IMG/VR virus record: IMGVR_UViG_3300033562_002408
Span: 1-39,154 of that record
Reading direction: 5' to 3' (one strand)
DNA length: 39,154 nucleotides
Source: a virus
Taxonomy: Duplodnaviria > Caudoviricetes
A program made the position numbers and the translations under genes. The notes beneath the pieces are model-generated. The model saw nothing but the letters and a program-made list of their open reading frames with translations. It did no database searches and had not been told where the DNA came from. Numbering within the stretch: position 1 is the stretch's first letter; every line of letters begins with the position of its first letter. Shown piece after piece: positions 2,363 through 32,016 of the stretch.

Positions 2363-4309
2363 TTATCGTTTACGGTCTGTTAAAATTGTTCTCCAATGAG
2401 CTGCTTTATCTACAGGTTCCACATAGATAGCTCTAAAGTGAATTGTTTTATCTCCTTGATCAGTTTCTACATCCCATTTAAAGCCATTTCCTCTAAAGAT
2501 TGAAAGGTTTTCATCCATATCAGTATCTACAACTTTTAGAACTTTAATATCTTTCATTTGTGAAATAATCTTCTTAATGGTAATTTCCATTTTTTCTTCG
2601 ATTATTTTTTTAAATGCAATTTTTATATTTTCATCAGACTCATTTTGAATTAATTGATATCCTTCAGAATCAGCAACTCGTTTTGTAAATTTATCACCTT
2701 TAAATTGAGGCAACCGAAGTTCTCTCTCCATTTGTTTATAAATTTTAGTACCTTCACCCCAAGTATTCCATGAATAATCACTAGGCAATAAAAATTCATT
2801 CCACGATTTTGTAGATTCTAATTTTTCAATTTCAGCAAGCCATTTTAGATCATATTTAGGTTTTAATTTATTTGAAATATAATCTTTATGTTCAATCATC
2901 CATAATGCTTGTTTCTTATATGTGTCTTTTGTCAATTTATTTCCATTAGCAATAGACAATTTCCAAAAATCAAAATCGTCTTCAACAATCTCAGGAATGG
3001 CTGCATTCAATCTATCAATAATCATTCCAAGAATATCTGTATCATCATTAGCATCCGATCCTAATTGTTTCTTTGATCGAACAACATTTGTAGTCTTTGT
3101 TAATTTAGTATATAAATCTTTAAGTTCTAACATTAGGGTACCTTCTGCTGAATATTTTCCACCAAAAAGATTTGGTAGTTCTACAGAAGTTCTTCCTGTA
3201 ATAAAATCAGGGATTTGATTGTATCTATTTTTATATCCAAACGTACCGGATGATCTTGAATTTGCTTTTGCATATTCGCGCCAAGAATCACGGAATCCCT
3301 CACCTAATTTTATATATTCACTACTTAGATAATTTTTATATTCTTCAAACTGATCTGAATCAACTTCTCCAGAATTTAATACATTTTTAATTTCGACTAA
3401 TTTAGGATCAAGATTATTTGAAAAACTATCTTCAAGACCAAGATCTTTTTTATTACTTTCGCCAACATCTAGAGTCTTTAATATATTTCTTAATTCAATT
3501 ATGTCTTTAAATTGTTTTAAAATTTCAGGATTAAATAGGTCATTATAAGCATCATACATTTTCATTGCTGCTTTATTAGTTTCACCAATATGATGTTCAA
3601 TTGGAAGTTCAAATTCATTATAATAATACTCAGAAAAGACCTTATTAACTTTATGTAATAAATTATACTCTTCTGTTGACCAATTACTCCAATTTTCACT
3701 TAAGCGAGAAAGATATTGTTTTGCTGTTTGTTCATTAATATTAAATTCATCTTTAATAAGCTTAATTACTTCTGGAGTTTGTTTGATGATTTCTTTACCA
3801 TATTTCTTATCAAATGTTTTATATAAACTATTTGGACTTTGTTTATCTCCTGCATACGAATTACCAGCAATATACTCTTGAATTTTATTAAGTTCATTTT
3901 TAATATCTGAAAGCTCGCTTTTAGTTTTCAGATATCCGCGTTCTAAAACAGCTTTAGTTCTTGGAAGATTACTAAAATCAACTGTACTTATATTAAATGG
4001 TTGATCAACTTTAGGTTCTTTAATTGATTTTGTTACTTTAGGTTCTTTAATTGATGGTGTTGATGGTGTTGATGATGTCGATTTCCCTAGACCACTAACT
4101 ACATCAGTAATTTTTTTAGTTCCATATTTTTCTGAGTGTTTATCAATATTTTCAATTTTTTTAGTTACATCTTCAACAGACGTTCCAAGTTCATCTGCAA
4201 TTTCTTTAACTGTAATTGACTTTCCTCTTTTTAGAACATCTCTAACATCATTCATAGTCGCCATTTCTTCAAACAAAACTTCTTTTATAACTTCCTTTAA
4301 TTTTTTCAT
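2363..4309 (-). CDS. Large hypothetical protein with leader-like N-terminus and possible HTH
   Basis: MKKLKEVIKEVLFEE leader; ITVKEIADELGTSVEDV resembles an HTH; STP and SIKEPKV linker repeats. Confidence 0.75.
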   Translation of the reverse strand: MKKLKEVIKEVLFEEMATMNDVRDVLKRGKSITVKEIADELGTSVEDVTKKIENIDKHSEKYGTKKITDVVSGLGKSTSSTPSTPSIKEPKVTKSIKEPKVDQPFNISTVDFSNLPRTKAVLERGYLKTKSELSDIKNELNKIQEYIAGNSYAGDKQSPNSLYKTFDKKYGKEIIKQTPEVIKLIKDEFNINEQTAKQYLSRLSENWSNWSTEEYNLLHKVNKVFSEYYYNEFELPIEHHIGETNKAAMKMYDAYNDLFNPEILKQFKDIIELRNILKTLDVGESNKKDLGLEDSFSNNLDPKLVEIKNVLNSGEVDSDQFEEYKNYLSSEYIKLGEGFRDSWREYAKANSRSSGTFGYKNRYNQIPDFITGRTSVELPNLFGGKYSAEGTLMLELKDLYTKLTKTTNVVRSKKQLGSDANDDTDILGMIIDRLNAAIPEIVEDDFDFWKLSIANGNKLTKDTYKKQALWMIEHKDYISNKLKPKYDLKWLAEIEKLESTKSWNEFLLPSDYSWNTWGEGTKIYKQMERELRLPQFKGDKFTKRVADSEGYQLIQNESDENIKIAFKKIIEEKMEITIKKIISQMKDIKVLKVVDTDMDENLSIFRGNGFKWDVETDQGDKTIHFRAIYVEPVDKAAHWRTILTDRKR

Positions 4310-4426: not shown

Positions 4427-4798
4427 TCATTTAACTAAATTATGAAACTGTTCAATTGTAATTTCAAAATACTCATTAAGTTCTTTGTTCCAAACATTTA
4501 TTTTACTATCACCATGAACACATTTACCACACTGGCGAGGAGCTAATGTAACAATATTATATCTATCATCTTCAACTGTTTCACCTGTCATTAATTTTAA
4601 CATTGTTCTCTGATAATCATATAAACTAATCAACTGTTTACCATGATCTAATGTAATAATATAACAATACGTCTCTGCAAAATATTCGATATTTTTTGCA
4701 CAACGTAACATCTCTGCCAACTCTTGCGGGGTAAACTCACGCTTGCGAAACTCTCTGCGTAAATTTGGATTACCTAAATATCCTTTCTGATCACTCAT
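4427..4798 (-). CDS. terL: Terminase large subunit fragment 1 (aa 1-92 extein) + split intein N-half (aa 93-123)
   Basis: YLGNPNL, YFAETYCYI, LYDYQ and PRQCGK match the gp17 N-terminus up to the Walker A Lys; then CVHGDSKI (intein block A) at 4430-4522 and stop. Confidence 0.93.
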   Translation of the reverse strand: MSDQKGYLGNPNLRREFRKREFTPQELAEMLRCAKNIEYFAETYCYIITLDHGKQLISLYDYQRTMLKLMTGETVEDDRYNIVTLAPRQCGKCVHGDSKINVWNKELNEYFEITIEQFHNLVK

Positions 4799-7666: not shown

Positions 7667-9825
7667 TCAATGCCTCCTAATAATTTTTTTATATTATAAT
7701 CTTCAGATAATGATAATCCTTCTCGAATTTTCAACTCTAATTCTTCTTCTGTTAAATCATCAAATACTTCTCTTAATACTTCAATATAATTTATTATACT
7801 TTCTTCAATCATTTTATTCTTATTATGAGATGTACTTGCTTTAACTAGTTTTAGGTTATCCCATATTTTTTGATGGTCTTCAGTTGTTTTTATTCCATTA
7901 GTTTCAAAAATATTAATTAATTCTTTTTTATCATTTAGTGGCATATTATCCCATGAAATATTAAGATTTTTTGTTGCAATTTTTTGAATTTCTTTATTTG
8001 CAAAAATAGCATCTGTTACAGTATTCTCGGCTGCGTCCTGATCTCCATCTTTTGAAGTTCCATTTTTAGATTTTGTAGAGTCATTAGGAAATTTTATATC
8101 AGGTAATATCCTTATTAATATTTCAGTTTGATGTTCCGGTGTTATATTTGGAAATTTTTCTTTTATTTTGTTTATAATTACATTTTGAGTTGTAATTGGT
8201 AATGTTTCCCATTCTTTTTCTTTATTATTTTTATTAAACTTTCGAAACTGAGCTACAAACGTGGCATCTTCATAAATTAATCTCGTTGTTCTGTTTATAT
8301 CAAATGGTTTTTGTTTGTCTTCATTATCACTAGGAGTGGTTGAAACTACTGTAGTTGCATCAGCTGTCTCATCAATAATATTTTTAATAAATTCTTCGTC
8401 TGCAAGAGTTCTATCTTCACCTAATGTGTTTTCAACGTTTGATAAAAACCATGTATTATTAATAGTGGAGACACCAATTTCTTTGACTTTTTCAAGGGCA
8501 GTTTTTAATTTATCATATGACTCTTTTTGTTCTTGTTTATCTACTGATTTATAAGATTTTGAAAAAAGATCCTTGAATGCTTGATCATTTGGTTTTAAAA
8601 TATCAAAGAATCTATTAAATTCATCTTTTGTAAATGGAGTATTAAATAATTGTTTAATATTCTCAGCAGTAAAATTAGCGTCTCCTGAAATTCCATTTCC
8701 AAGTGCTGTAATAATGATTTTTGAATCGTCTTCAGTTATTCCTGTATCAGCATTCATTAAAATTTTTGATAAATTTGTCATTGTTGTTTCATCTGCAGGA
8801 GTTGCTTTCTTCATAAAATCAATAATTGTATCTTTATCGGTTGTTGATAATTTATTTCTAAGATCATTTATTTGGTCAGAAGTATATTTAGAATTTATTT
8901 TTCCTTTAGTTACTTCACCTTCTATTTTAGCGGTTCCTAAACGAGCTTTAACAATTTTAATTGATCTTTCTTTTTCAATTTTTTGTTTTATTAATGCGTC
9001 TTCAAATGCTATTTTTGTTTCATCAAGTATGGTTTTATCAACAGGTTTATCATCTTGAGTATCAAAAAATAATTGTTTTTGTTCATCTGATAAAGAATTA
9101 ACTGCTTGTATAATCAATTCCAATTCTTTTGATGCATCACCTAAAAATTCATTAACAATTTCTTTAGCTCTTGCATCTTCAACTTTTTGTTTTATTAATG
9201 CTTTTTCAAATGCTGCTTTTGTTTCTTCAAGAATATCGGCACCAACAACAATATTGTCATCGTTAATATCTTTAAATAATTGTTTTTGCTCTTCTGATAA
9301 CGATTCAATTGCTTTATTAATTAAATCTGCCTCATCAACAGCCAATTTTGCATCTTCTTCTAATTTTTTAGGATTAACTGTTTTTTTCAAATTCATCATT
9401 TGTTTTGTAGACATATTTTCAATTTTTGATACAAACGCATCTGCTAAAATTTCAGATTTATCTTTCCCACGTTTTATTTTCCCAGTATTATTAACTTGTG
9501 ATAATACTTTTTTACCATCTGTTTTATCAAACATATTATAAATTTCATTTCTTATAGTAGGATCATAAAATATTTTTTGAAAGAATCCATCGTCCCTTGT
9601 TAAGTCCTTTAATGATTTATTAATATCACCGACTATTGCATTTTTTAATTTATTAGCACCGAGTTTTCCAAGACCTAGTGCACCTGTTCCAATGTCTTTT
9701 ATAAAATTATAATAGTCATAAACTTCTTCTACTAATTTATCACTTTTATTTTTACCTTCTTCATAAAATGCAATTCTGTTTAAATCATTTAAAAATTCAA
9801 TATCTGATTTTAATCGTTTATTCAT
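7663..9825 (-). CDS. Large hypothetical protein (720 aa) with internal 69-aa tandem repeat
   Basis: SLSEEQKQLF...ILEETKAAFEKALIKQK repeated as SLSDEQKQLF...ILDETKIAFEDALIKQK, 207 nt apart. Confidence 0.75.
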   Translation of the reverse strand: MNKRLKSDIEFLNDLNRIAFYEEGKNKSDKLVEEVYDYYNFIKDIGTGALGLGKLGANKLKNAIVGDINKSLKDLTRDDGFFQKIFYDPTIRNEIYNMFDKTDGKKVLSQVNNTGKIKRGKDKSEILADAFVSKIENMSTKQMMNLKKTVNPKKLEEDAKLAVDEADLINKAIESLSEEQKQLFKDINDDNIVVGADILEETKAAFEKALIKQKVEDARAKEIVNEFLGDASKELELIIQAVNSLSDEQKQLFFDTQDDKPVDKTILDETKIAFEDALIKQKIEKERSIKIVKARLGTAKIEGEVTKGKINSKYTSDQINDLRNKLSTTDKDTIIDFMKKATPADETTMTNLSKILMNADTGITEDDSKIIITALGNGISGDANFTAENIKQLFNTPFTKDEFNRFFDILKPNDQAFKDLFSKSYKSVDKQEQKESYDKLKTALEKVKEIGVSTINNTWFLSNVENTLGEDRTLADEEFIKNIIDETADATTVVSTTPSDNEDKQKPFDINRTTRLIYEDATFVAQFRKFNKNNKEKEWETLPITTQNVIINKIKEKFPNITPEHQTEILIRILPDIKFPNDSTKSKNGTSKDGDQDAAENTVTDAIFANKEIQKIATKNLNISWDNMPLNDKKELINIFETNGIKTTEDHQKIWDNLKLVKASTSHNKNKMIEESIINYIEVLREVFDDLTEEELELKIREGLSLSEDYNIKKLLGGIE

Positions 9826-9869: not shown

Positions 9870-10934
9870 TTATATCTTTTCAGAATCAAGTTCCAAAAAC
9901 TTAGCATTTATATAATTAAAAACTTCTTTTTTAATTTTTGAGGAAAAATCCATAGCTTCTAATTTAGCTTTAACCATATCAGGAATACTTTTTACTTTTG
10001 ATATGTCTTCTTGATTTATATCTTCACCAGTTTCAGAGTAATCATAATGAGTAATTACATTTACAGATAATGGAGCTCCACCCTCATATGATTCAATTAA
10101 TTCAACATAATTATTAATCTTTTTAGAATCAAAATCATGTTTTACATTTACATGAATATCAATAATATTGTTTGGGATTTCAACTTTTGTAAGATCTGTT
10201 CCAAAAGGAATCACAATATACTTCAAGGTATTCTTACTATAAACTCTTTCCCACTTTTGTGTTTCAAAATCTAATACAATAACACCTCTGTCTCCATTGG
10301 AATCATTACGATCCAAATGATATGGACAACCGATATAAGTAATTTCTTTCTTTCCAGATTTATATGTTGATGGTTCATGGAAATGTCCTGTAAATGTCAT
10401 TTTAAAATTCTTGTGGAAAAATGATTGATCGTTCCCACCTTCATTTACTTGTTTCTTATTTAACTTACAACCATTTATCGCAAAATGTCCAAATGCAATT
10501 TCTCCTTTATATTTTTTAGATTGAAATATATTGTCGGTCTGCCAAGGAAAAAATGTACAATCAACTCCAAATATATTCATTTCAGAGATTGAACTTATAA
10601 CCGTAATGTTATCAAATAATTCAAAAAATCGTAATGAATGAATTTCATTAGATGTATTAAAAAATACGTCATGATTTCCTAATAAAATTAAAACTTCAAT
10701 ATCATTTTTCTTTAATTCATTTAACACACTAAAAACTACATTTGACACTCTAACGTCTACTGAAGTACGAGTATCAAAGAAGTCGCCTAAAATAAACAAC
10801 TTCTTAATTTCATTTTCAATTAAATATGGGATAAGCTCTTTCATAAAATAATTCTCCATTGAATTAAGCATGAATAGAGCACCTTTCTTTTTACCCCAAT
10901 GAACATCTGATATTAGGCAAACCTTTTTATTCAT
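9870..10934 (-). CDS. 47: Recombination nuclease subunit, gp47/Mre11/SbcD-like
   Basis: Metallophosphoesterase motifs SDVHWG, LGDFFD, LGNHD, FGHF, GHFH. Confidence 0.93.
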   Translation of the reverse strand: MNKKVCLISDVHWGKKKGALFMLNSMENYFMKELIPYLIENEIKKLFILGDFFDTRTSVDVRVSNVVFSVLNELKKNDIEVLILLGNHDVFFNTSNEIHSLRFFELFDNITVISSISEMNIFGVDCTFFPWQTDNIFQSKKYKGEIAFGHFAINGCKLNKKQVNEGGNDQSFFHKNFKMTFTGHFHEPSTYKSGKKEITYIGCPYHLDRNDSNGDRGVIVLDFETQKWERVYSKNTLKYIVIPFGTDLTKVEIPNNIIDIHVNVKHDFDSKKINNYVELIESYEGGAPLSVNVITHYDYSETGEDINQEDISKVKSIPDMVKAKLEAMDFSSKIKKEVFNYINAKFLELDSEKI

Positions 10935-14054: not shown

Positions 14055-14975
14055 ATGAAGCGTTCAGAATTAAAACAAATTATTAAAGAAGTGATTGAGG
14101 AATCTAATATATTAGGCAAGACAAAATTGAAGATTTATCATGGAGATAATTTTGGATTGACTGACATAAATTCTAATTTCAGATTAATGAGTCTTGAAAA
14201 TTCAAACCAACAAGAAGGTCCAGGAATTTATTTTTCAACAAATAAAGAAACTGCAGAACACTATGGTAGTAAAGTAGTTTCAATAGAAATTGATCTAGTA
14301 AGATTCATGAGTTCGAGAGAAAAGATTTCAAAATATTTATCAACTAAAGTAATAAAAACAATACTAATGAATATATCAGAAAACGATGATAAGTTTTTGG
14401 ATATATTATCAGATTATGGCGAAGATGTATCATCTTATTCCAAAGTTCCTTCATTATATTGGGATAAATTATCTAAGATGATGGGAATTGAACAAGTAAG
14501 AAATTTTCTAATAACATTATGTGAATATACTTCAGTAGAAAATGTAATTACAAGTTTTACTAATAATTGTGCATATTATGGAACACAAAATAAACAAAAC
14601 GAAGATAATATTTGGTTTGCTGTATTTAAAACTGATAGTCATATAATAGAGGAGAATTTAAAATCAAAAATTCAACAGGAATCTGTTGAATCTGAAAAAC
14701 ACAATTGGATGAAACATGTGCAGAAAGAGATTGAAAATGAATTGAGTAAGCTGAATGCTAGATATAGTAAGTTATATTCGGATTTACTAGATTTATCAGA
14801 TAGTGGTGATTTCACATCAACAGATGTTAGTGCTAGGAAAGCTGAACTTCGTCAGATAAAAATTGATGAACATCTAATTAAGAAACTATATGATAATGTT
14901 GGTGATTTTTATGATGGTTTTAAAAATAAGTCAGGGAAAGAAATTATTGATAGTATTTTGAAAAAAGAAAAATAA
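14055..14975 (+). CDS. ELKQII-leader protein with ADP-ribosyltransferase-like domain
   Basis: MKRSELKQIIKEVIEE then KIYHG...EGPGIYFSTNKETAEHYG (ART-like YHG / GxGIYF / AxxY). Confidence 0.6.
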   Translation: MKRSELKQIIKEVIEESNILGKTKLKIYHGDNFGLTDINSNFRLMSLENSNQQEGPGIYFSTNKETAEHYGSKVVSIEIDLVRFMSSREKISKYLSTKVIKTILMNISENDDKFLDILSDYGEDVSSYSKVPSLYWDKLSKMMGIEQVRNFLITLCEYTSVENVITSFTNNCAYYGTQNKQNEDNIWFAVFKTDSHIIEENLKSKIQQESVESEKHNWMKHVQKEIENELSKLNARYSKLYSDLLDLSDSGDFTSTDVSARKAELRQIKIDEHLIKKLYDNVGDFYDGFKNKSGKEIIDSILKKEK

Positions 14976-22522: not shown

Positions 22523-23470
22523 ATGAAAAAAAATCTATTAATTGACGTGAGCAATGTATATTGGAGATGTGCACATGTCGCGCATGTTGAGGGCGACAAA
22601 CAATATATGACTCAAATTGAGATTCATTCATATTGGAAACATATGTGTATTCAATCTATTCTTGCAGTTGTAAACAAAGAAGAATGGGACAAAGTTATCA
22701 TGTGTTACGACTCAAGAGGATATTGGAGAAATAAAATTTATCCTGCCTATAAAGCAAATAGAAAAACCGAAAAAGCAAAAGGAAGAATTGATTTTGAAAC
22801 GTTTATTCTAGAAATTAATCAATTGACTATTGATTTGAAAGATAAATTTCAATCAGTATATCATTTAGAGGTTAAAGAAGCAGAGGCAGATGACATTGCA
22901 GGAGTTGTTACAAAAGAGCTTGTTACAAAGGGTGAAAGTGTTACGATTATGACTGGTGATAAAGACTATAAACAATTGTTGAAATATCCAAATGTTGTTA
23001 TATATGATCCAAGAACTAAGAAGAATATGACAAGTCTTAATATTGCGAAAGAAATGGAAGTCAAGTATATCATGGGAGACCGTGGAGATAATATATTTGC
23101 TATTAAACCAAAGACAGGTGAAGTCAGAGCTAAAGCAATGGTTGAAAGTGGGAAGATGCATGAAATGCATGTTCAGTATCATGAAAATATACAGAAACTT
23201 ACAGAAGAAGAAGTTGATATGGTTGAACGTTATGAGTTGAATCGTCAGTTGATATCTTGGGAGTATATTCCAATGAATATTCAGAATGATATTCGCAAAC
23301 AGTTTAATGAATACCAGTTGACTAAATTTGATCAAGGTAAGATGCTAATTTGGTTGAATGACAATGATTTGACAATATTAGGGCAGAAGTTTTTGAAGAG
23401 TCAATCATTAGTATTTATGAATTTACATAATAATTTTGTAAATAAAAATTTAAATTCGGAGTTTTTCTAA
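22523..23470 (+). CDS. rnh: T4-type RNase H / 5'-3' flap exonuclease
   Basis: LLIDVSN, YWRNKIYPAYKANR, EADDI, TGDKDYKQL, GDRGDNI. Confidence 0.92.
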   Translation: MKKNLLIDVSNVYWRCAHVAHVEGDKQYMTQIEIHSYWKHMCIQSILAVVNKEEWDKVIMCYDSRGYWRNKIYPAYKANRKTEKAKGRIDFETFILEINQLTIDLKDKFQSVYHLEVKEAEADDIAGVVTKELVTKGESVTIMTGDKDYKQLLKYPNVVIYDPRTKKNMTSLNIAKEMEVKYIMGDRGDNIFAIKPKTGEVRAKAMVESGKMHEMHVQYHENIQKLTEEEVDMVERYELNRQLISWEYIPMNIQNDIRKQFNEYQLTKFDQGKMLIWLNDNDLTILGQKFLKSQSLVFMNLHNNFVNKNLNSEFF

Positions 23471-24225
23471 TGTATAAATTTGAAGAAGTAATTGAACTAC
23501 CAAAAGGAACATGGTTTATTGAAAGTGATTATGGTTGGTCTGAAATGACTCACAGTCTCAAAACAATTCCTTACCAAATTTGGTTTGTTAAAACCACAAA
23601 CTTTGAAATTAAAGTTGCAGATAAACATAAATTTTTTGGTGAATATAATAATGAAATTTATGCTGATGAATTAATAGTAGGTACTATGATAATTACTAAA
23701 AATGGTTTAGAACCTGTTGTTGAAGTATATTCAATGGGATATACTGAAAATACATATTCTCCAACTGTTTTAAATAGTGATAATTCATACTATGCAAATG
23801 GAATTAAGAATAAAAATACTACCATCGTAGGAATATTTTTGGTCCATTACTTATTGTTTAATAAAGATAAAACAATCGCAGTTCTCGCTAATAAGATGCA
23901 AGGAGCGACTGAAATTGTAGATAGAGCAAAAGTAATTATTGAACACTTGCCAGATTTTTTAAAGCCAGGTGTTAAGAATTATAACAAGAAAACTATTGAA
24001 TTGGAAAATGGATGTAAGCTTATTGCTGCAGCAACTTCCCCATCAGCAGTTCGAGGATTATCAATCAATTGTCAAGAATCGGATAATATAATTGAAATTA
24101 GGGATACAATAACAGGAGAGATTGAACAATTGACGTTTGAACAATTACATCGTAGATTGTTATTAGAATCATCAGGGCTTATAGAAGAATTAATGAATGT
24201 ATCAATAGAAGGAGATAAAAAATGA
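23470..24225 (+). CDS. terL: Terminase large subunit fragment 2: IntC (aa 1-116) + extein (117-200) + IntN (201-251)
   Basis: SYYANGIKNKN|TTIV junction at 23817/23818; gp17 motifs AVLANK, LPDFLKPG, IELENG, TSPSAVRG; C at 24070 begins CQESDNIIEI. Confidence 0.93.
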   Translation: MYKFEEVIELPKGTWFIESDYGWSEMTHSLKTIPYQIWFVKTTNFEIKVADKHKFFGEYNNEIYADELIVGTMIITKNGLEPVVEVYSMGYTENTYSPTVLNSDNSYYANGIKNKNTTIVGIFLVHYLLFNKDKTIAVLANKMQGATEIVDRAKVIIEHLPDFLKPGVKNYNKKTIELENGCKLIAAATSPSAVRGLSINCQESDNIIEIRDTITGEIEQLTFEQLHRRLLLESSGLIEELMNVSIEGDKK

Positions 24226-24539
24226 AATACGAAGCAATGGGTAAAAATATAATTGTTGTATTGAAAAAAGAGAAAGATTTGAGTCATGGTGAGAACCAAC
24301 AAGAATCTGGAATTATTTTGATTGGTAATGGAGAAGTTGATAAAAAAACAGAAGCAGATAAGAATACTGGAGAAGTAATTTCAGTAGGTTCTGAAGTTAG
24401 TGGAATCGTAGTAGGAGACTTTGTTAGAGTTCGTTCAATGGTAGGAGATGTATTGGAAGAAATTGAAGGTGAAACTGAAGTAACGCGACTATTAGTATTA
24501 GACTTTAGTTTTGTGTTGGCAAAGATACTTAAGGATTAA
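24222..24539 (+). CDS. groES: GroES/gp31-like co-chaperonin
   Basis: ESGIIL mobile loop, TGEVISVG, VVGDFV. Confidence 0.8.
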   Translation: MKYEAMGKNIIVVLKKEKDLSHGENQQESGIILIGNGEVDKKTEADKNTGEVISVGSEVSGIVVGDFVRVRSMVGDVLEEIEGETEVTRLLVLDFSFVLAKILKD

Positions 24540-24544
24540 TACAT

Positions 24545-25051
24545 ATGTCTGACTTATATAAAACTCACTTAGAAGTTATTGAATTTGTTTTAGATAATTG
24601 TGATATTAAAAAAGTTATTGAGTTTGGTCCTGGTAATTATTCAACAGATCTATTTGTTAAAAGACAAATGGATCTTGTTAGTGTTGAACAACAATCATTT
24701 GATTGGTATAAACACATAAAAGAAACATTCCCTAAAATATCTTTATTTTATGAGCCTAATTTAGATTTTACATTTTCAAGATTTAAAATGAGTTATAATC
24801 AGTTTGATTTAGTATTTATTGATGGTCATGAACATTCTAGAGCAGTGTTGACTAACATAGCAACTAATAAAACAAAGATAATTATTTGTCATGACACTGA
24901 GCCTAAAAATAGTCATATTTATGGTTGGGGTGTTGTTGATAAAACTATTGAAGGTTGGGAGTGGATTGATATTAAAAATTCAGAGGTTTGGACAAGTGTC
25001 TTTACATCTAATGACGAATTAAAACAAAAATTAAAATTGCGATTTGAATAA
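24545..25051 (+). CDS. Class I SAM-dependent methyltransferase-like protein
   Basis: VIEFGPGNYST, VSVEQ, FDLVFIDG...R, ICHD. Confidence 0.8.
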   Translation: MSDLYKTHLEVIEFVLDNCDIKKVIEFGPGNYSTDLFVKRQMDLVSVEQQSFDWYKHIKETFPKISLFYEPNLDFTFSRFKMSYNQFDLVFIDGHEHSRAVLTNIATNKTKIIICHDTEPKNSHIYGWGVVDKTIEGWEWIDIKNSEVWTSVFTSNDELKQKLKLRFE

Positions 25052-25101
25052 TTAGTTACCGCATAATGATATGATGATATAACCCAAAATAGGAGATAAT
25101 A

Positions 25102-25542
25102 ATGAGTGGAGTTAATAATTTAATTGAACCTAACTTTATTCCAAATAATAGATATGAAATTAAGACCATTGATGGATTTAAATCATTCAGTGGTCTTATT
25201 TTTGGTGAGTCTGAAGATCTTTATTCATATGAAGATAAAATTTACACTGCAGAACATTTAATTAAAAATGATGGTGATTTTAAACTTGTTAAAGATATTG
25301 GAATTAAAGTAAATAAGAAACAAATGATGTATGACCCTTTTGAAGTTGAAGGAGGTCATACTTATATCACAAAAGATGGAAAAGAACATCATAATTGTCA
25401 AACAGGTGAACAATTTGTTGATATTTTTGATAAAGTGACTAATGAGAAGATGAAGGTAACTTTAAAAGAACTTGAAAAAATGATTTTACTTGATAATGCT
25501 GGATTAGACTACAAGACTTCAACAATTATAAATATTCAATAA
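25102..25542 (+). CDS. Extein-less IntC(1-98)-IntN(99-146) intein fusion, candidate trans-splicing relay for TerL
   Basis: TAEH (block B), MYDPFEV..GHTYIT (block F), HHN|C at 25395/25396, then CQTGEQFVDI..., colinear with the IntN of fragment 2; strong AGGAG SD. Confidence 0.85.
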   Translation: MSGVNNLIEPNFIPNNRYEIKTIDGFKSFSGLIFGESEDLYSYEDKIYTAEHLIKNDGDFKLVKDIGIKVNKKQMMYDPFEVEGGHTYITKDGKEHHNCQTGEQFVDIFDKVTNEKMKVTLKELEKMILLDNAGLDYKTSTIINIQ

Positions 25543-25607
25543 ATAAATAGTTTAGATTGATAACAACCATCAAATATTAAAAAGTTCATCAAAAAGGAGA
25601 TTTTAAA

Positions 25608-26432
25608 ATGAAACGTAGTGAATTAAAACAACTTATTCAAGAATGTATTATGGAAGAAGGACGTGCAGGAGAACTTGATTCAATCGCAAAAGTTCCTGTA
25701 CATGTAATTAAAAAATTAGCAGACTCTTATGGAACATCATTTGATCCAATTAATTCTGAAGTATCTAAATTAATTATAGTAGATTCATCAGACGCTGCTT
25801 GGAAATATATTGGCAATTTAGTAAAACCAGGCCCAGGTAAATATGGTGGAGATGGCCAATTTGTTGCATTATATTCTGATGAATCTGGAGATTCATTTAG
25901 AGGTATCGTTCAGCCTAAAGGACGACAATATACAATTATTGATTCAACTGGAACATTCATTAAATTCCCAACAATTGCTGGAGTCAAAAACTGGGCATAT
26001 ACAAATGTAGTAAAAGGTATTAGAACAATAAACTTTAATGAATGGCGATCTTATGATGATAAAGAATCACAAGCACCTAGAAGTGATATTGCTAGAGATC
26101 GCACAGTACCGTCATACGAAACCAATAATATTGAACAAGCAAAAATTAGAGCTTGGTCTAAGTTTATTGATAAACACTTTACTAAAGAGATTGATAGATT
26201 AATTATTGCAGGTATCCTTGATTTTATTACAAAAAATCAAGAATCTATTGTTGATAGAGTAAAAATAGGTTATAGTAGTATTGATATCAGTGATGCATTA
26301 GCAAAAAGAGATTGGTCTACTGGAGAAGTTTCTGATGGTATTAAAGACCGTTCTACAGTTGAAAGAGAAAAAGGTTTAAAACTTGATAATGCTCGTAGAA
26401 GAGCTAGGGGCGAAGAAGAAAGAGAGTGGTAA
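25608..26432 (+). CDS. Hypothetical protein, ELKQII-leader family
   Basis: MKRSELKQLIQECIMEE; SD AGGAG. Confidence 0.8.
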   Translation: MKRSELKQLIQECIMEEGRAGELDSIAKVPVHVIKKLADSYGTSFDPINSEVSKLIIVDSSDAAWKYIGNLVKPGPGKYGGDGQFVALYSDESGDSFRGIVQPKGRQYTIIDSTGTFIKFPTIAGVKNWAYTNVVKGIRTINFNEWRSYDDKESQAPRSDIARDRTVPSYETNNIEQAKIRAWSKFIDKHFTKEIDRLIIAGILDFITKNQESIVDRVKIGYSSIDISDALAKRDWSTGEVSDGIKDRSTVEREKGLKLDNARRRARGEEEREW

Positions 26433-26454
26433 TCATTTCTTTAGATTAAAAAAC

Positions 26455-26481
26455 AAAAGGAGCTAATATTTAGCTCCTTTT
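26455..26481. terminator. Bidirectional intrinsic terminator
   Basis: aaaaggagctaa-tat-ttagctcctttt. Confidence 0.85.
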
Positions 26482-26610
26482 TTATTCTTCAATTTTATTT
26501 TTATGTTTTCGATTTCTGAAATCTTTCGATTTCTTTTTCTTGTCAGCGATTACTTGAGTGACCCTACCACCTCGTAATTTCCCATCTTTGATTTTTTCTT
26601 CAACAGTCAT
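26482..26610 (-). CDS. Small basic peptide (42 aa)
   Basis: MTVEEKIKDGKLRGGRVTQVIADKKKKSKDFRNRKHKNKIEE; GAGGAGG SD, own promoter motif and terminator; not in ORF track. Confidence 0.75.
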   Translation of the reverse strand: MTVEEKIKDGKLRGGRVTQVIADKKKKSKDFRNRKHKNKIEE

Positions 26611-26634
26611 TTTGTCCTCCTCTTTATCTTTATT

Positions 26635-26670
26635 TATATTAGTATATATAACTCAAAACAAAAAAATAAC
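26635..26670 (-). promoter_or_regulatory. Variant of repeated early promoter motif
   Basis: TTTTTTTGTTTTGAGTTATATATACTAATATAA on minus strand. Confidence 0.6.
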
Positions 26671-26682
26671 TTTTTATTTTTT

Positions 26683-26690
26683 TATAAATA
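26683..26690 (+). promoter_or_regulatory. T4-type late promoter TATAAATA
   Basis: Exact motif about 42 nt upstream of leader-family ORF 26733. Confidence 0.55.
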
Positions 26691-26732
26691 GTTTTAATTA
26701 AAACTAACTTAAAGAAAGGATAATATTTAAAG

Positions 26733-27119
26733 ATGAAAAAAATAGAATTAAAAAATTTAATTAGACAAATAATTGAAGAAGAAACGAAGACTGATTTAAT
26801 TAAAAAACCATTTTTAGATGATTTTAACAAAACCATTCAAATTCTTGCTAAAAAAATAGTAAGAGGAAAAATTGATCCTGATTGTTTTAGTGAAATGAAA
26901 AGTGCTCTTGATACTATGACAATTATTTTAAATTTCGCAAAACTAAAAAATACTTATAAAGAACCAACATATAATGAAATTGAAGAATTATTCGATGAAC
27001 TAATACCATTTGAACAAAGTAAACAATATGCAGAAAATGATTTTGGTGATTATCATAAAATAGATTATAATGAAGCCACTGTAAATAAATATGATACTGA
27101 TGAAGATGATTACTTGTAA
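26733..27119 (+). CDS. Hypothetical protein, ELKQII-leader family
   Basis: MKKIELKNLIRQIIEEE. Confidence 0.8.
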   Translation: MKKIELKNLIRQIIEEETKTDLIKKPFLDDFNKTIQILAKKIVRGKIDPDCFSEMKSALDTMTIILNFAKLKNTYKEPTYNEIEELFDELIPFEQSKQYAENDFGDYHKIDYNEATVNKYDTDEDDYL

Positions 27120-27204
27120 ATTAGTTTCATTGATATTAGATGAATTTAGTTATTTTAAATAATAAATGTGTTATATTTAATTAGAAATAACTAAAGGAGA
27201 CTAT

Positions 27205-28077
27205 ATGTCAAAATATGAAAAAATTTATGAAGAGCTTTGTCAAAATGCAAAACAACGAAACATTTTAAAAGAAACTGGATTTGAAGTTCATCACATTAAA
27301 CCAAGATGTCTTGGCGGAAATGATCACAAAGATAACTTAGTTAAACTAACTCTTAGAGAACATTTTATCGCTCATAAACTTCTTGTTAAAATTTATCCTA
27401 ATAACGAAGATCTTAAATTTGCAGTTAGAATTATCTTTAATATACAAGGAAAAGGTCTTAATAGAACTGCAAGAGAATATGAAAAATATAGACTAGAAGC
27501 AATGGCAAATTTCAAAGATCAAGTAATAGTAAAAGATGAAAATGGTAAAACAAGAAAAGTTTCTAAAATGGACCCAGATTGGATTTCTGGAAAATTAATA
27601 TGCAATGCAAAAGGAACTGTACTTTGCAAACATATTACAAATCATTCAAGAACAAAAAGAATTTCTAAAGATGACACTGAATACAACAAAACATGGATCC
27701 CTTTTTCAAAAGGTGTTTCTAAAACAAAAGAACATAAAGAAAAACTTTCAAAAACCAGACTTGATAATGGATTATCAAAAGGTGAAAATAATCCTATGTT
27801 TGGTCAGGGACATAAAGTAACTGGTGAAAAAAATGGAAGATTTGGAAAACCTACATCTGATTCAGCAAAACAAAAACAATCAAATGCAAAAAGAAAATTC
27901 ATTGAAGAAAATGGGGTAGCTTGTTTTGGATTAGGCAAAATTTACATGACTGAACCAAATAACGGAAAACTAAAACGAGTTGATATAAAAGATGTAATTA
28001 AACTTGAAAAACAAGGATATACTATTTCAATAAGTGGAAAACAAAAACTAATAAAACAAGGACTTTATCATGAGTGA
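27205..28077 (+). CDS. Free-standing HNH homing endonuclease with NUMOD3-like repeats
   Basis: EVHHIKPRCLGG.D..DNLVKLTLREHFIAH; KTKEHKEKLS, GENNPMFG, GEKNGRFGK. Confidence 0.88.
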   Translation: MSKYEKIYEELCQNAKQRNILKETGFEVHHIKPRCLGGNDHKDNLVKLTLREHFIAHKLLVKIYPNNEDLKFAVRIIFNIQGKGLNRTAREYEKYRLEAMANFKDQVIVKDENGKTRKVSKMDPDWISGKLICNAKGTVLCKHITNHSRTKRISKDDTEYNKTWIPFSKGVSKTKEHKEKLSKTRLDNGLSKGENNPMFGQGHKVTGEKNGRFGKPTSDSAKQKQSNAKRKFIEENGVACFGLGKIYMTEPNNGKLKRVDIKDVIKLEKQGYTISISGKQKLIKQGLYHE

Positions 28078-28777
28078 TATACATCTACAACAAAATGTCG
28101 AAATTAATTTTCAATCTGGGAGATTTCAAATACTTTCTCAGGATAATATTTATAGGGACTTCAAAGGAATTGCAAAAGGATTTAGTTCTGAATTCCTTTG
28201 GGAAGTGGATGGATTTCTTTATACCAAAGATCATACTTTTATTATTAATGGAAAAGACGTTAAAGCATCTGAAATAGGAATAGAAACAAATAAAAAAGAA
28301 TCTATATATGATATACTACATGTGCAAGAAACACATAACTATATATCAAATAATAAATTACAAAAAAATTGCTTAGTGCTTGATGAATTTGGGCATGTTG
28401 GTAATGGAGGAAAAGGAGATTTAGCATTAGAGTTTGTTATGTCAGTATTTCCAACGATTTCATCTGCGAAGAACAAGAAAAATTCTAAAATAATAATCAT
28501 TAGTACTCCTAACGGCATGAATCAGTTTTACCAAATTTATTCTAAAGCGCAACAAAAGAAGAATGATTTTACGGCATTCAAGATTGATTGGCAAGATATT
28601 CCTCGAAGTGTTAGTCCAGATCAATTTAGACAAAATCAAGTGAATACTATTGGAGAATTAGGATTTGCACAGGAGTATGCGTGTGTTGGTGAAGATACAT
28701 TAGTAACAATTAAATATGATGATCAAACAAAGACAGTTACGTTATCAGAGTTAGAAGAACTTTTAAATAAAGAATAA
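28070..28777 (+). CDS. terL: Terminase large subunit fragment 3: IntC (1-100) + extein (101-204) + IntN (205-235)
   Basis: TKDH, IYDI..V...HNYI...QKN|CLVLDEF (Walker B) at 28370; PTISS, IIISTPNG, FAQEYA|CVGEDTLV at 28682. Confidence 0.94.
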   Translation: MSDIHLQQNVEINFQSGRFQILSQDNIYRDFKGIAKGFSSEFLWEVDGFLYTKDHTFIINGKDVKASEIGIETNKKESIYDILHVQETHNYISNNKLQKNCLVLDEFGHVGNGGKGDLALEFVMSVFPTISSAKNKKNSKIIIISTPNGMNQFYQIYSKAQQKKNDFTAFKIDWQDIPRSVSPDQFRQNQVNTIGELGFAQEYACVGEDTLVTIKYDDQTKTVTLSELEELLNKE

Positions 28778-28816
28778 TAAATATTCATATAAAACAAATA
28801 ACATAAGGATATTTTT

Positions 28817-29572
28817 ATGGATTATTCAGAATTAAAACAAATTATTAGAACTATAATCGAAGAGGAATTGATAATTAGTGATGATACTATTGATTTTGTA
28901 TCTGGCGGTGAAATTTCCAGTAATTTTGGTAAGTCTAAGAAAATGCAAGCATACGAAACAGGAGCAAGACCAACCACTGAATATAAACCTTTGAGTATTT
29001 TATCTGTTTATAAATCTAAAAGAAGCGACGACACAACAGCAGCATTAAAGAGATTAAAAGCAATGTCAGTTACAAAACCAGAAAGTTATTTGAAGTTTAT
29101 TAAACGATCAGCGATTTATATTGCGAATAAGTTGTTAAAAGGAACTGATTATGTAATTACTCCAAAATCAAGTCATCAAGTTTTGAGTGATTTAAAAACA
29201 GAGATTTCAAAGATAAAGCCACATTTAAAATGGTTAGATGAAGGTTTTTTAAAGAATGATGTTTCTAAAATAAAGTTAAGAACCGATTTAAAACTTAGTG
29301 ATAAAACAGTAAAAACATTAAGGAAAAATATTGATAATCAAGGTGGAGATTTTCAAATGAAGAATACACCAAAGAAATTTGCAAAAGCGTATTATGATAT
29401 ATTTGATTTTTCAGATACAGTTGTACTTGATAAATTGAAGGATTCCAAAATTACAATATTAGATGATGTATTAAGTACAGGTGCATCTGCTTATGATATG
29501 TATTATCAGTTTGAGAAATTTGGAATTGATAATGTAAATATGGTCACGTTATTTAAACAATTCGATAAATAA
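28817..29572 (+). CDS. Leader-bearing type I phosphoribosyltransferase-like protein
   Basis: MDYSELKQIIRTIIEEE; PRPP-binding loop ITILDDVLSTGAS; ITPKSS. Confidence 0.78.
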   Translation: MDYSELKQIIRTIIEEELIISDDTIDFVSGGEISSNFGKSKKMQAYETGARPTTEYKPLSILSVYKSKRSDDTTAALKRLKAMSVTKPESYLKFIKRSAIYIANKLLKGTDYVITPKSSHQVLSDLKTEISKIKPHLKWLDEGFLKNDVSKIKLRTDLKLSDKTVKTLRKNIDNQGGDFQMKNTPKKFAKAYYDIFDFSDTVVLDKLKDSKITILDDVLSTGASAYDMYYQFEKFGIDNVNMVTLFKQFDK

Positions 29573-29595: not shown

Positions 29596-29916
29596 ATGAA
29601 AAGAGACGAACTTAAACAACTTGTACGTCAAGTTATAGAAGAATCATTTGAATCAGAATCTACATTGAACGATGAAACAGATTCAGGATCTTTATGGAAC
29701 GAAGAAGATGTAGAAGTAAAAACATCTAGCAAATACATTGATGTTAGATTTGAATCTAATGTAGAAACTAATGAATACAAATTATTTGTTGAAGATGAAT
29801 TAATTTGTTCTGGTGAATTCGGTGGTGGAGGAGTAGAATCAGTTGATTATGAAAAGGGAGACGAATTTGATTTAGTGAACACTATTTATAGTTTAATGGG
29901 ATCAAATTTTAAATAA
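29596..29916 (+). CDS. Acidic hypothetical protein, ELKQII-leader family
   Basis: MKRDELKQLVRQVIEE; SD AGGAG. Confidence 0.8.
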   Translation: MKRDELKQLVRQVIEESFESESTLNDETDSGSLWNEEDVEVKTSSKYIDVRFESNVETNEYKLFVEDELICSGEFGGGGVESVDYEKGDEFDLVNTIYSLMGSNFK

Positions 29917-29986: not shown

Positions 29987-30760
29987 TTACTTACCTACAA
30001 ATTCAAAGCATTCTTGTAAAGTACCATTAAATACTTCAGTATGCGATTCTTCTTCATCATCTCCGGTATAGTCATATTCGATTACAGAGTAATCATTTTC
30101 TAACTTGTCATTTTCATAAATAACTGTTCCTTCTGCCCTTGATCCACTTATTCTCCAAGCATTATCTGCCCAGTCTGCCGATCCACCAATATTCCTGAAT
30201 GTTGATAATTTATCATATGCTTCTTCAAAATCTTTATCAACAGTTTCATCATCTTCAAGACCATCTAAAAGAACACCTAAAACTTCTTCACGCATTCCAG
30301 AATTATTTCCCTTATCGTAATAATTATCATAAAAATCAATGATATCTAATTTATCACCTTTAAATACCCAAGTAACCCATGGTCCATTAGTACCATCTAC
30401 ATCAATGTTATATTTATCAATTGCATTCCAAAGTCCTTTGTCGTCAGGTTCTGTAATTTCTAATTCTATGGTCGCTTCATACGTTTTAGTTGCAAAACTA
30501 GATCTAGAAAGAGTATCAATTTCATCATTTTGATAATAAGAATCTAAAAATAAGTTAATACGTTTTGCTTCACCTTTTAGTAACCAATTTTTATTTTTTG
30601 CTTGTGAACTAAAACTAATATTAAATTCTTGCATAAATGACCAAAAGTCCCAATCAAAAAATTCTTCTTTAGCAATTGTAACAACAACTTCATTTGAATT
30701 AACTTCATTAGATTCTTCTATAATATCTCTAATGATTTGTTTAAGTTTAGATTTATCCAT
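29987..30760 (-). CDS. Acidic hypothetical protein, ELKQII-leader family
   Basis: MDKSKLKQIIRDIIEE; SD GAGG. Confidence 0.8.
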   Translation of the reverse strand: MDKSKLKQIIRDIIEESNEVNSNEVVVTIAKEEFFDWDFWSFMQEFNISFSSQAKNKNWLLKGEAKRINLFLDSYYQNDEIDTLSRSSFATKTYEATIELEITEPDDKGLWNAIDKYNIDVDGTNGPWVTWVFKGDKLDIIDFYDNYYDKGNNSGMREEVLGVLLDGLEDDETVDKDFEEAYDKLSTFRNIGGSADWADNAWRISGSRAEGTVIYENDKLENDYSVIEYDYTGDDEEESHTEVFNGTLQECFEFVGK

Positions 30761-31392: not shown

Positions 31393-32016
31393 ATGAAACG
31401 TTCAGAATTGAAAGATCTTATTAGAAAAGTAATTGAAGAAGGTACTGAAATTGAAGATACAATTCTTACTGGAAAAAAAGTAGAAGAAGATGAAGAAGCT
31501 GAAGATTCAGAAGATGAAGATTCAGAAGAAACTGAAGAAGATTCTGAAGATGAAATTCCAGCAGGGTCTGATTTAGAAAAGACTTATATTGGCATGATAG
31601 AAAAAAGCATTAAAGATGAGCTTTCCGCAGTAATCTCTTATGTTATTATGGCAAATGTTCTTGAAGGTACAGATGCAGAAGGAGATGTATCTGCACATTT
31701 GCTTGAGCATGCTGATGATGAGTATGTTCATTTTAAAGAGCTTATTGCTTATGCAAATAATCATGGAGTTCTTGATAAGATTAAAATTGAGATTGATTCA
31801 GAATTGGTAAATAATTTACCATCAGAGCTTGAAGATGTGGTTGAATTGACTCAAGAGTTGGAAACAGGTGCTATTGAATTGTATAATGAGATGGCAAATG
31901 TTGCGTTAGATGCTAGAGATTTTGAAACATATGATTTCGCAAAAGATGCAATGACTGATGAAATGGGACACTTTGATGATTTTTCAATCTGGTCAGGGGA
32001 TGTAAGATCATTCTAA
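31393..32016 (+). CDS. Leader-bearing ferritin/bacterioferritin-like diiron protein
   Basis: MKRSELKDLIRKVIEE, acidic linker, then DELSA...Y, DEYVH, LETGAI..Y, DEMGH (E/ExxH twice). Confidence 0.8.
   Translation: MKRSELKDLIRKVIEEGTEIEDTILTGKKVEEDEEAEDSEDEDSEETEEDSEDEIPAGSDLEKTYIGMIEKSIKDELSAVISYVIMANVLEGTDAEGDVSAHLLEHADDEYVHFKELIAYANNHGVLDKIKIEIDSELVNNLPSELEDVVELTQELETGAIELYNEMANVALDARDFETYDFAKDAMTDEMGHFDDFSIWSGDVRSF

Follow-up and report, generated by a model that had tools for sequence, protein, structure and literature searches.

What is the function of a gene that encodes two intein halves, an IntC followed by an IntN, and no extein on either side? Such a gene, here called the adaptor, is found in 39 kb of DNA from a large T4-like phage (the window, 39,154 nucleotides, the whole stretch of DNA that was analysed). 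It lies among the scattered fragments of the phage terminase gene, TerL, which is itself interrupted by split inteins. The coordinates of the relevant features and the parts of each fragment are collected in Table 1.

Table 1. Terminase fragments, adaptor gene and neighbouring features in the window (aa, amino acids).
Feature	Coordinates	Strand	Basis	Parts and remarks
TerL fragment 1	4427..4798	-	homology	extein to Walker A, aa 1-92; IntN, aa 93-123
TerL fragment 2	23470..24225	+	PF03237, intein comparison	IntC, aa 1-116; extein, aa 117-200, last residue Asn; IntN, aa 201-251, from 24070
GroES-like gene	24222..24539	+	profile match	between fragment 2 and adaptor
Shine-Dalgarno AGGAG	25091..25095	+		6 nt upstream of adaptor ATG [sequence]
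Adaptor candidate	25102..25542	+	ORF, homology, fold	extein-less IntC-IntN gene, 146 aa
Adaptor IntC	25102..25395	+	Thr49/His52, Asp78, terminal His97-Asn98	aa 1-98
Adaptor IntN	25396..25539	+	starts with Cys99	aa 99-146, conserved C-terminal tail
HNH/NUMOD3 homing endonuclease	27205..28077	+	phrog_655, E 2e-37	free-standing; overlaps fragment 3 start
TerL fragment 3	28070..28777	+	homology, intein comparison	IntC, aa 1-100; extein, aa 101-204, first residue Cys at Walker B; IntN, aa 205-235

The anatomy proposed in an earlier note on this DNA, that of a standalone gene with a Shine-Dalgarno sequence in which an IntC is followed from Cys99 by an IntN, is confirmed. Residues 1–98 terminate in His-His-Asn, and Cys99, the sole cysteine of the protein, is the first residue of the IntN-like part. 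In intein motif naming, we take Thr49/His52 to be block B and Asp78 to be block F. The ungapped match of the adaptor IntN to the IntN of fragment 2, which the note had counted as 12 of 37 identical residues, recounts to the same figure; it has a local score of 73 (z 11.7), reached by none of 2000 shuffles, and is the top-scoring of the window's six IntN pairs. The likeness seen earlier between the adaptor IntC and that of fragment 3 holds equally (score 113, z 14.8) and ranks first among the six IntC pairs. Two runs from separate studies each yielded one contig that covers the gene, and no contig in four runs joins the flanks while skipping the adaptor alone, a comparison in which contigs cannot show absence. 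Pfam returned one unrelated, sub-cutoff match for the adaptor and PHROGs none. Within the coding sequence, a hairpin at 25157–25202 is the longest inverted repeat of the interval 23400–28900, and the 141-nt 5' region of the gene folds at z −2.96; sigma-70-like sites occur at chance level (35 vs 42).

Exteins 2 and 3, placed end to end, reproduce exactly the register of the intein-free TerL from locus L067, in agreement with the earlier statement that the adaptor lies between fragments whose exteins meet without a missing residue. The exteins of fragments 1 and 2 are likewise in exact register with that protein. Fragment 1 is encoded on the opposite strand, ~18.7 kb from fragment 2. TerL consists of at least four extein-bearing pieces, and the piece downstream of fragment 3 was not seen within the window. 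In six-frame profile searches of the window only the intein halves already listed matched, with the exception of the fragment 2 IntC, which is of another type. Service of the adaptor at another TerL junction was considered and ruled out by homology, its halves being nearest those at Walker B.

Two other features of the window are recorded here as separate observations. A DNA polymerase piece at 1–690 on the minus strand, recognized with PHROGs, opens with an IntC of 41 aa, one of the ordinary short inteins' kind, and represents a second split gene of this phage. An N-terminal motif of ~16 aa, ending in Ile/Leu-x-Glu-Glu, is common to 10 of the 56 ORFs of at least 80 aa (813–1112, 1128–1370, 2363–4309, 14055–14975, 25608–26432, 26733–27119, 28817–29572, 29596–29916, 29987–30760 and 31393–32016), the last of which encodes a ferritin-like protein (PF00210, E 6e-14). 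The shared motif is reminiscent of the T4-type leader that targets proteins to the capsid and is cut by the head protease.

The adaptor belongs to a conserved family. A full-library phmmer search gave 24 matches at E <= 0.001, comprising five full-length extein-less proteins, one shorter variant (P0008) and, for the remainder, extein-bearing intein proteins or unrelated repeats; a profile search matched 13 of 847 candidates, all 13 with the identical junction. The extein-less layout is present in 14 clusters at 90% identity, 33–82% identical to the query, so that the IntC-IntN-only genes that the note had proposed to look for in related phages do exist. Those family members that carry a name are annotated 'hypothetical protein'. 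In all 15 aligned rows, zero residues separate Asn98 from Cys99, and Asp78, Asn98, Cys99, Gln100 and Thr101 are all present; Thr49 and His52 are found in each of the 14 rows covering those positions. Among five phages in which a fragment 2 and an adaptor could be paired, the adaptor IntN averages 0.51 identity and the adaptor IntC 0.42, compared with 0.38 and 0.37 for the IntN and IntC of fragment 2. Four of these five pairings come from contigs of identical nucleotide count (4 matches among 25 x 19, with ~0.075 expected by chance). Pairwise identity averages 61% among adaptor IntNs vs 41% in the commonest fragment-2 IntN type.

One variant departs from this pattern. P0008 (126 aa, on a 1003-nt contig) is an IntC-IntN fusion whose IntC groups with the fragment-3 IntCs (98/89) and whose IntN starts unlike the adaptor family; it may represent another kind of adaptor or come from a truncated gene. 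Searches in other collections added no close relative. IMG/VR scans with single window proteins found none, and a scan with the adaptor family alignment returned only one distant contiguous TerL; a junction-pattern scan gave 12 loci, all unrelated, and none of the 17 loci retrieved with the fragment-2 alignment has an intein half at the Walker B site. GTDB scans yielded no relative or only unrelated pattern matches, and among GenBank phages no record covers 80% of the adaptor, the 13 matches being weak and partial.

In class 1 inteins, splicing proceeds through an N-S shift at Cys1, transfer to the +1 Cys and cyclisation of the terminal Asn. Sequence comparison suggests that the adaptor is probably the connecting element in a two-step trans-splicing relay built on this chemistry, one that would join fragments 2 and 3 at Walker B. 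Intein A would be formed by the fragment 2 IntN and the adaptor IntC, intein B by the adaptor IntN and the fragment 3 IntC, and the two inteins would be orthogonal. If A spliced first, Cys99 would serve as the +1 nucleophile, transferring a new IntN onto fragment 2, and would next act as Cys1. If B spliced first, the adaptor IntC, handled as an N-extein, would pass onto the first Cys of extein 3; fragment 3 would now bear a new IntC, pairing with fragment 2. In either case, the product would carry no adaptor residue. The order should not matter because B meets an Asn at −1 and A meets a Cys at +1 in both orders, and the same TerL should result because Asn is the last residue of extein 2 and of the adaptor IntC alike, and Cys is the first residue of both extein 3 and the adaptor IntN.

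The relay reading of the earlier note is the part that stood, and we rank it best supported because of the conservation of the family, the kept catalytic residues, the gene position and the look-alikes of both intermediates, all of this evidence being computational; the fixed order that the note had assumed is not needed, since the reverse order would yield the same product. A stronger form, in which the relay is obligatory and order-independent, the gene is essential, its product is wholly consumed and one Cys is both +1 nucleophile and Cys1, is put forward more tentatively. The note had also raised a checkpoint or timer role in packaging, for which no evidence was found. A selfish insertion turned indispensable is the simpler explanation.

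Several metagenome proteins have the makeup expected of the two relay intermediates. The adaptor IntNs form one group (98/98, rough supports over 47 columns), as do the four fragment-3 IntCs (98/94). Among 20 aligned fragment-2 homologues, five have an IntN with an adaptor-type start. The four complete IntNs of this kind score 11–28 on the adaptor tail, truncated P0043 being left out, compared with −16 to 9 for the other fragment-2 IntNs (n=16). These five homologues, known as metagenome proteins alone, resemble in sequence the product of A-first splicing. The counterpart on the other side is P0004, likewise a metagenome protein, in which an adaptor-type IntC is followed by a Walker B extein (grouping support 96/90); its exclusion from the adaptor-type IntC group is rejected in a post hoc quick test (AU p 0.024), and its sequence resembles the product of B-first splicing. 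A special closeness of this phage's adaptor IntC to the fragment-3 IntCs was considered and dropped, the support being weak (81/81) and a single adaptor clade with P0004 included not being rejected by the AU test (p 0.35).

Co-divergence of the halves across the five paired phages points in the same direction, depending on the metric. By identity, the fragment 2 IntN and the adaptor IntC co-diverge strongly (r 0.89; 0.88 as a partial correlation on the extein), compared with r 0.40 (partial 0.17) for the two halves of the adaptor, with a Mantel p of 0.008 for both comparisons. With normalised BLOSUM scores the gap narrows (0.72 vs 0.52), and without the closest pair it is gone (0.25 vs 0.25), so that the preference for the fragment 2 IntN/adaptor IntC pairing is suggestive only. 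Two further measures are neutral: the within-phage identity of the halves (22–32% for IntN in five phages, 29% for IntC in two) is not a readout of orthogonality, and net charge does not discriminate the pairings.

The order of the genes is that of a fractured gene with one substitution. In the window, the IntN-bearing adaptor, the endonuclease and the IntC-bearing fragment 3 follow one another, with two further ORFs interposed, and the adaptor has an IntC where the N-terminal part of the host enzyme is expected. Homologue DNA was examined at two independent loci, L002 and L003 (a third, L001, is identical to the window). In L002, the adaptor, an endonuclease remnant resembling the end of the window's endonuclease, and fragment 3 directly adjoin. 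In L003, a GroES-like gene, judged by eye, directly precedes the adaptor, as one precedes it in the window. At five control loci (L017, L018, L020, L022 and L023), one split intein alone occupies the corresponding site and an adaptor is absent; in the last four, the order is IntN, one endonuclease-like gene (GIY-YIG type by eye) and IntC, and it is the place of their N-part gene that the adaptor occupies in L002.

These loci display other interruptions. A group I intron of ~328 nt (L002 3514–3853; RF00028, 50.8 bits, E 4.7e-12) is located inside the Walker B of fragment 3, four codons past the intein junction; P0014 and P0004 also end just past the Walker B motif and may be interrupted likewise. 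In control L017, four unrelated ORFs separate IntN and IntC, and the TerL N-part at 9517–10054 matches in two frames near 9920, reflecting a frameshift or an assembly error. Elsewhere, in the TerL proteins P0009 and P0022, a pair of inteins at Walker B is separated by only 8 and 6 residues, respectively, and in P0009 four contiguous inteins are apparent by eye.

A plausible origin of the relay would be two allelic split-intein elements placed head to tail at one Asn|Cys site. A second allelic element could land or recombine there because a terminal Asn and the next Cys recreate the insertion site. The need for an adaptor would have arisen as the two inteins diverged, and no regulatory benefit would be needed for its origin. 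Terminases may have acquired the relay layout on more than one occasion.

Three alternatives to the relay were weighed. In the first, which we consider unlikely, the adaptor closes up into a circularly permuted intein, equivalent to a SICLOPPS layout with zero insert, and acts as a decoy, a sink or a domain-swapping regulator; it would be latent or self-cleaving at Asn98–Cys99 and would not be a covalent link in TerL splicing. Structure prediction speaks for this fold. AlphaFold2 returned a closed monomer (pLDDT 92–94 over residues 101–130, pTM 0.81), residues 26–128 of which align with the SICLOPPS construct 5ol6, spanning the junction. Apart from the question of closure, residues 5–98 of the model match the IntC of the Cat intein best (6dsl_B; Z 7.7, rmsd 2.2, 90 aligned). 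All of rows 1–31 of the 41 in the structure comparison are HINT-fold entries. Foldseek placed the Cat IntC in its top row with no hit at E < 0.001, and a PDB sequence search with the adaptor gave a chance match only. In a control, the non-cognate IntN of fragment 2 did not dock confidently to its own IntC (pLDDT 52–69, pTM 0.49), an imperfect comparison given the more distant intein and its 84-aa spacer; therefore, closure in cis is not automatic. By this model, the adaptor's own halves are, at a minimum, compatible in structure, and both derive from the same-site intein family. Against a closed adaptor, however, a monomer prediction offers the protein no alternative partner, and its best-conserved part, the tail at 131–146, is the least confident region of the model (78 and 47). 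The co-divergence by identity, lower between the adaptor halves than between its IntC and the fragment 2 IntN, also argues against it, as does the full catalytic set, for which a spent or inert fold offers no clear reason. A three-chain prediction of the fragment-2 IntN, the fragment-3 IntC and the adaptor scored 0.20, 0.62 and 0.22, with a median below the 0.32 mark, and counts neither for nor against any reading.

The second alternative, to which we give marginally less credence, accepts the relay reaction and makes it optional: fragments 2 and 3 would also splice directly, and the adaptor would be a selfish passenger or an aid to compatibility in mixed infections. The gap-free joining of exteins 2 and 3 and the use of a single split intein at the same site by other phages are both in keeping with this. 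In this phage's clade, moreover, the fragment 2 IntN groups with the adaptor IntN lineage (94/94), and the two are about equally identical to the intermediate-like IntNs (0.39 for fragment 2, 0.37 for the adaptor); because of this kinship, the fragment 2 IntN may still bind fragment 3 directly. Yet an easily bypassed gene should decay, and this one is intact in 14 clusters down to 33% identity, with an IntN better conserved than that of fragment 2. In three of the five paired phages, the fragment 2 IntN is of a distinct type that lacks the conserved tail, which speaks against this alternative. Finally, a non-functional relic of tandem duplication, an idea of the earlier note, is very improbable: head-to-tail duplication of a split-intein element yields the same layout and P0036, a homologue of only 86 aa, has an altered sequence, but the conserved family and its (nearly) invariant catalytic positions rule out a neutral relic as a general explanation, the ribosome-binding site is good, and the paralogous intein halves retain no DNA-level repeat in the window.

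If the relay is correct, stacked selfish elements alone would have made a natural gene essential: inteins would stack at a single site, adding essential genes that are absent from the final enzyme. Natural trans-splicing would be able to exchange one intein half for another, and a traceless adaptor would render ligation dependent on a third component. Pairs of same-site split inteins that have evolved to orthogonality would also become available. With no significant Pfam or PHROGs match, extein-less adaptor genes escape annotation.

The adaptor gene is real and conserved and is apparently undescribed in print, with known chemistry and a new architecture. The earlier note knew of no described precedent, and a literature search that reached few of the subscription journals, home to much of the intein chemistry, likewise found no natural extein-less IntC-IntN gene. 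AceL-TerL is an atypically split TerL intein. With this class and the consensus Cat intein (PDB 6dsl), the adaptor shares a short IntN, an IntC of ~100 aa and the HINT fold, and with atypically split TerL inteins also Thr-x-x-His, the block F Asp, the terminal Asn and the +1 nucleophile; in those inteins, however, each junction is served by a single IntN and a single IntC, each carrying an extein, whereas the adaptor has no extein. The micro-extein TerL proteins P0009 (8 aa) and P0022 (6 aa) also have an IntC closely followed by an IntN around Walker B, but at two distinct sites, and the intervening extein residues, of which the adaptor has none, are retained in TerL. Fractured phage genes, in which split inteins accompany a free-standing endonuclease, include a GOS terminase split intein (Dassa et al. 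2009, PMC2677866). As far as the available text of that paper describes them, these genes resemble our locus in three respects: the host enzyme is a T4-like terminase, the intein is divided close to its N-terminus and has a long C part, and an endonuclease gene separates the genes for IntN and IntC. There, both halves carry an extein, whereas here the gene upstream of the endonuclease is extein-less and carries the IntC of a second intein. Related work is found in PMC10189870, and the accessible part of the Gosselin preprint (10.1101/2025.01.02.630785) contains neither 'tandem' nor 'two inteins'. Two engineered systems come closest in layout. SICLOPPS, as outlined in the accessible part of a review (PMC7314982; structure PDB 5ol6), is likewise a single chain ordered IntC-Cys-IntN; there the halves are cognate and a peptide insert is cyclised, whereas the adaptor has no insert and its halves would be non-cognate under the relay reading. 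In the tandem trans-splicing with orthogonal split inteins engineered by Humberg et al. (2025, PMC12707363), to judge from the available portion of the report, a middle piece ordered IntC-segment-IntN bridges two outer pieces by means of two inteins, as the adaptor would; the engineered middle segment stays in the product, whereas here it is of zero length, and one Cys would be both +1 nucleophile and Cys1.
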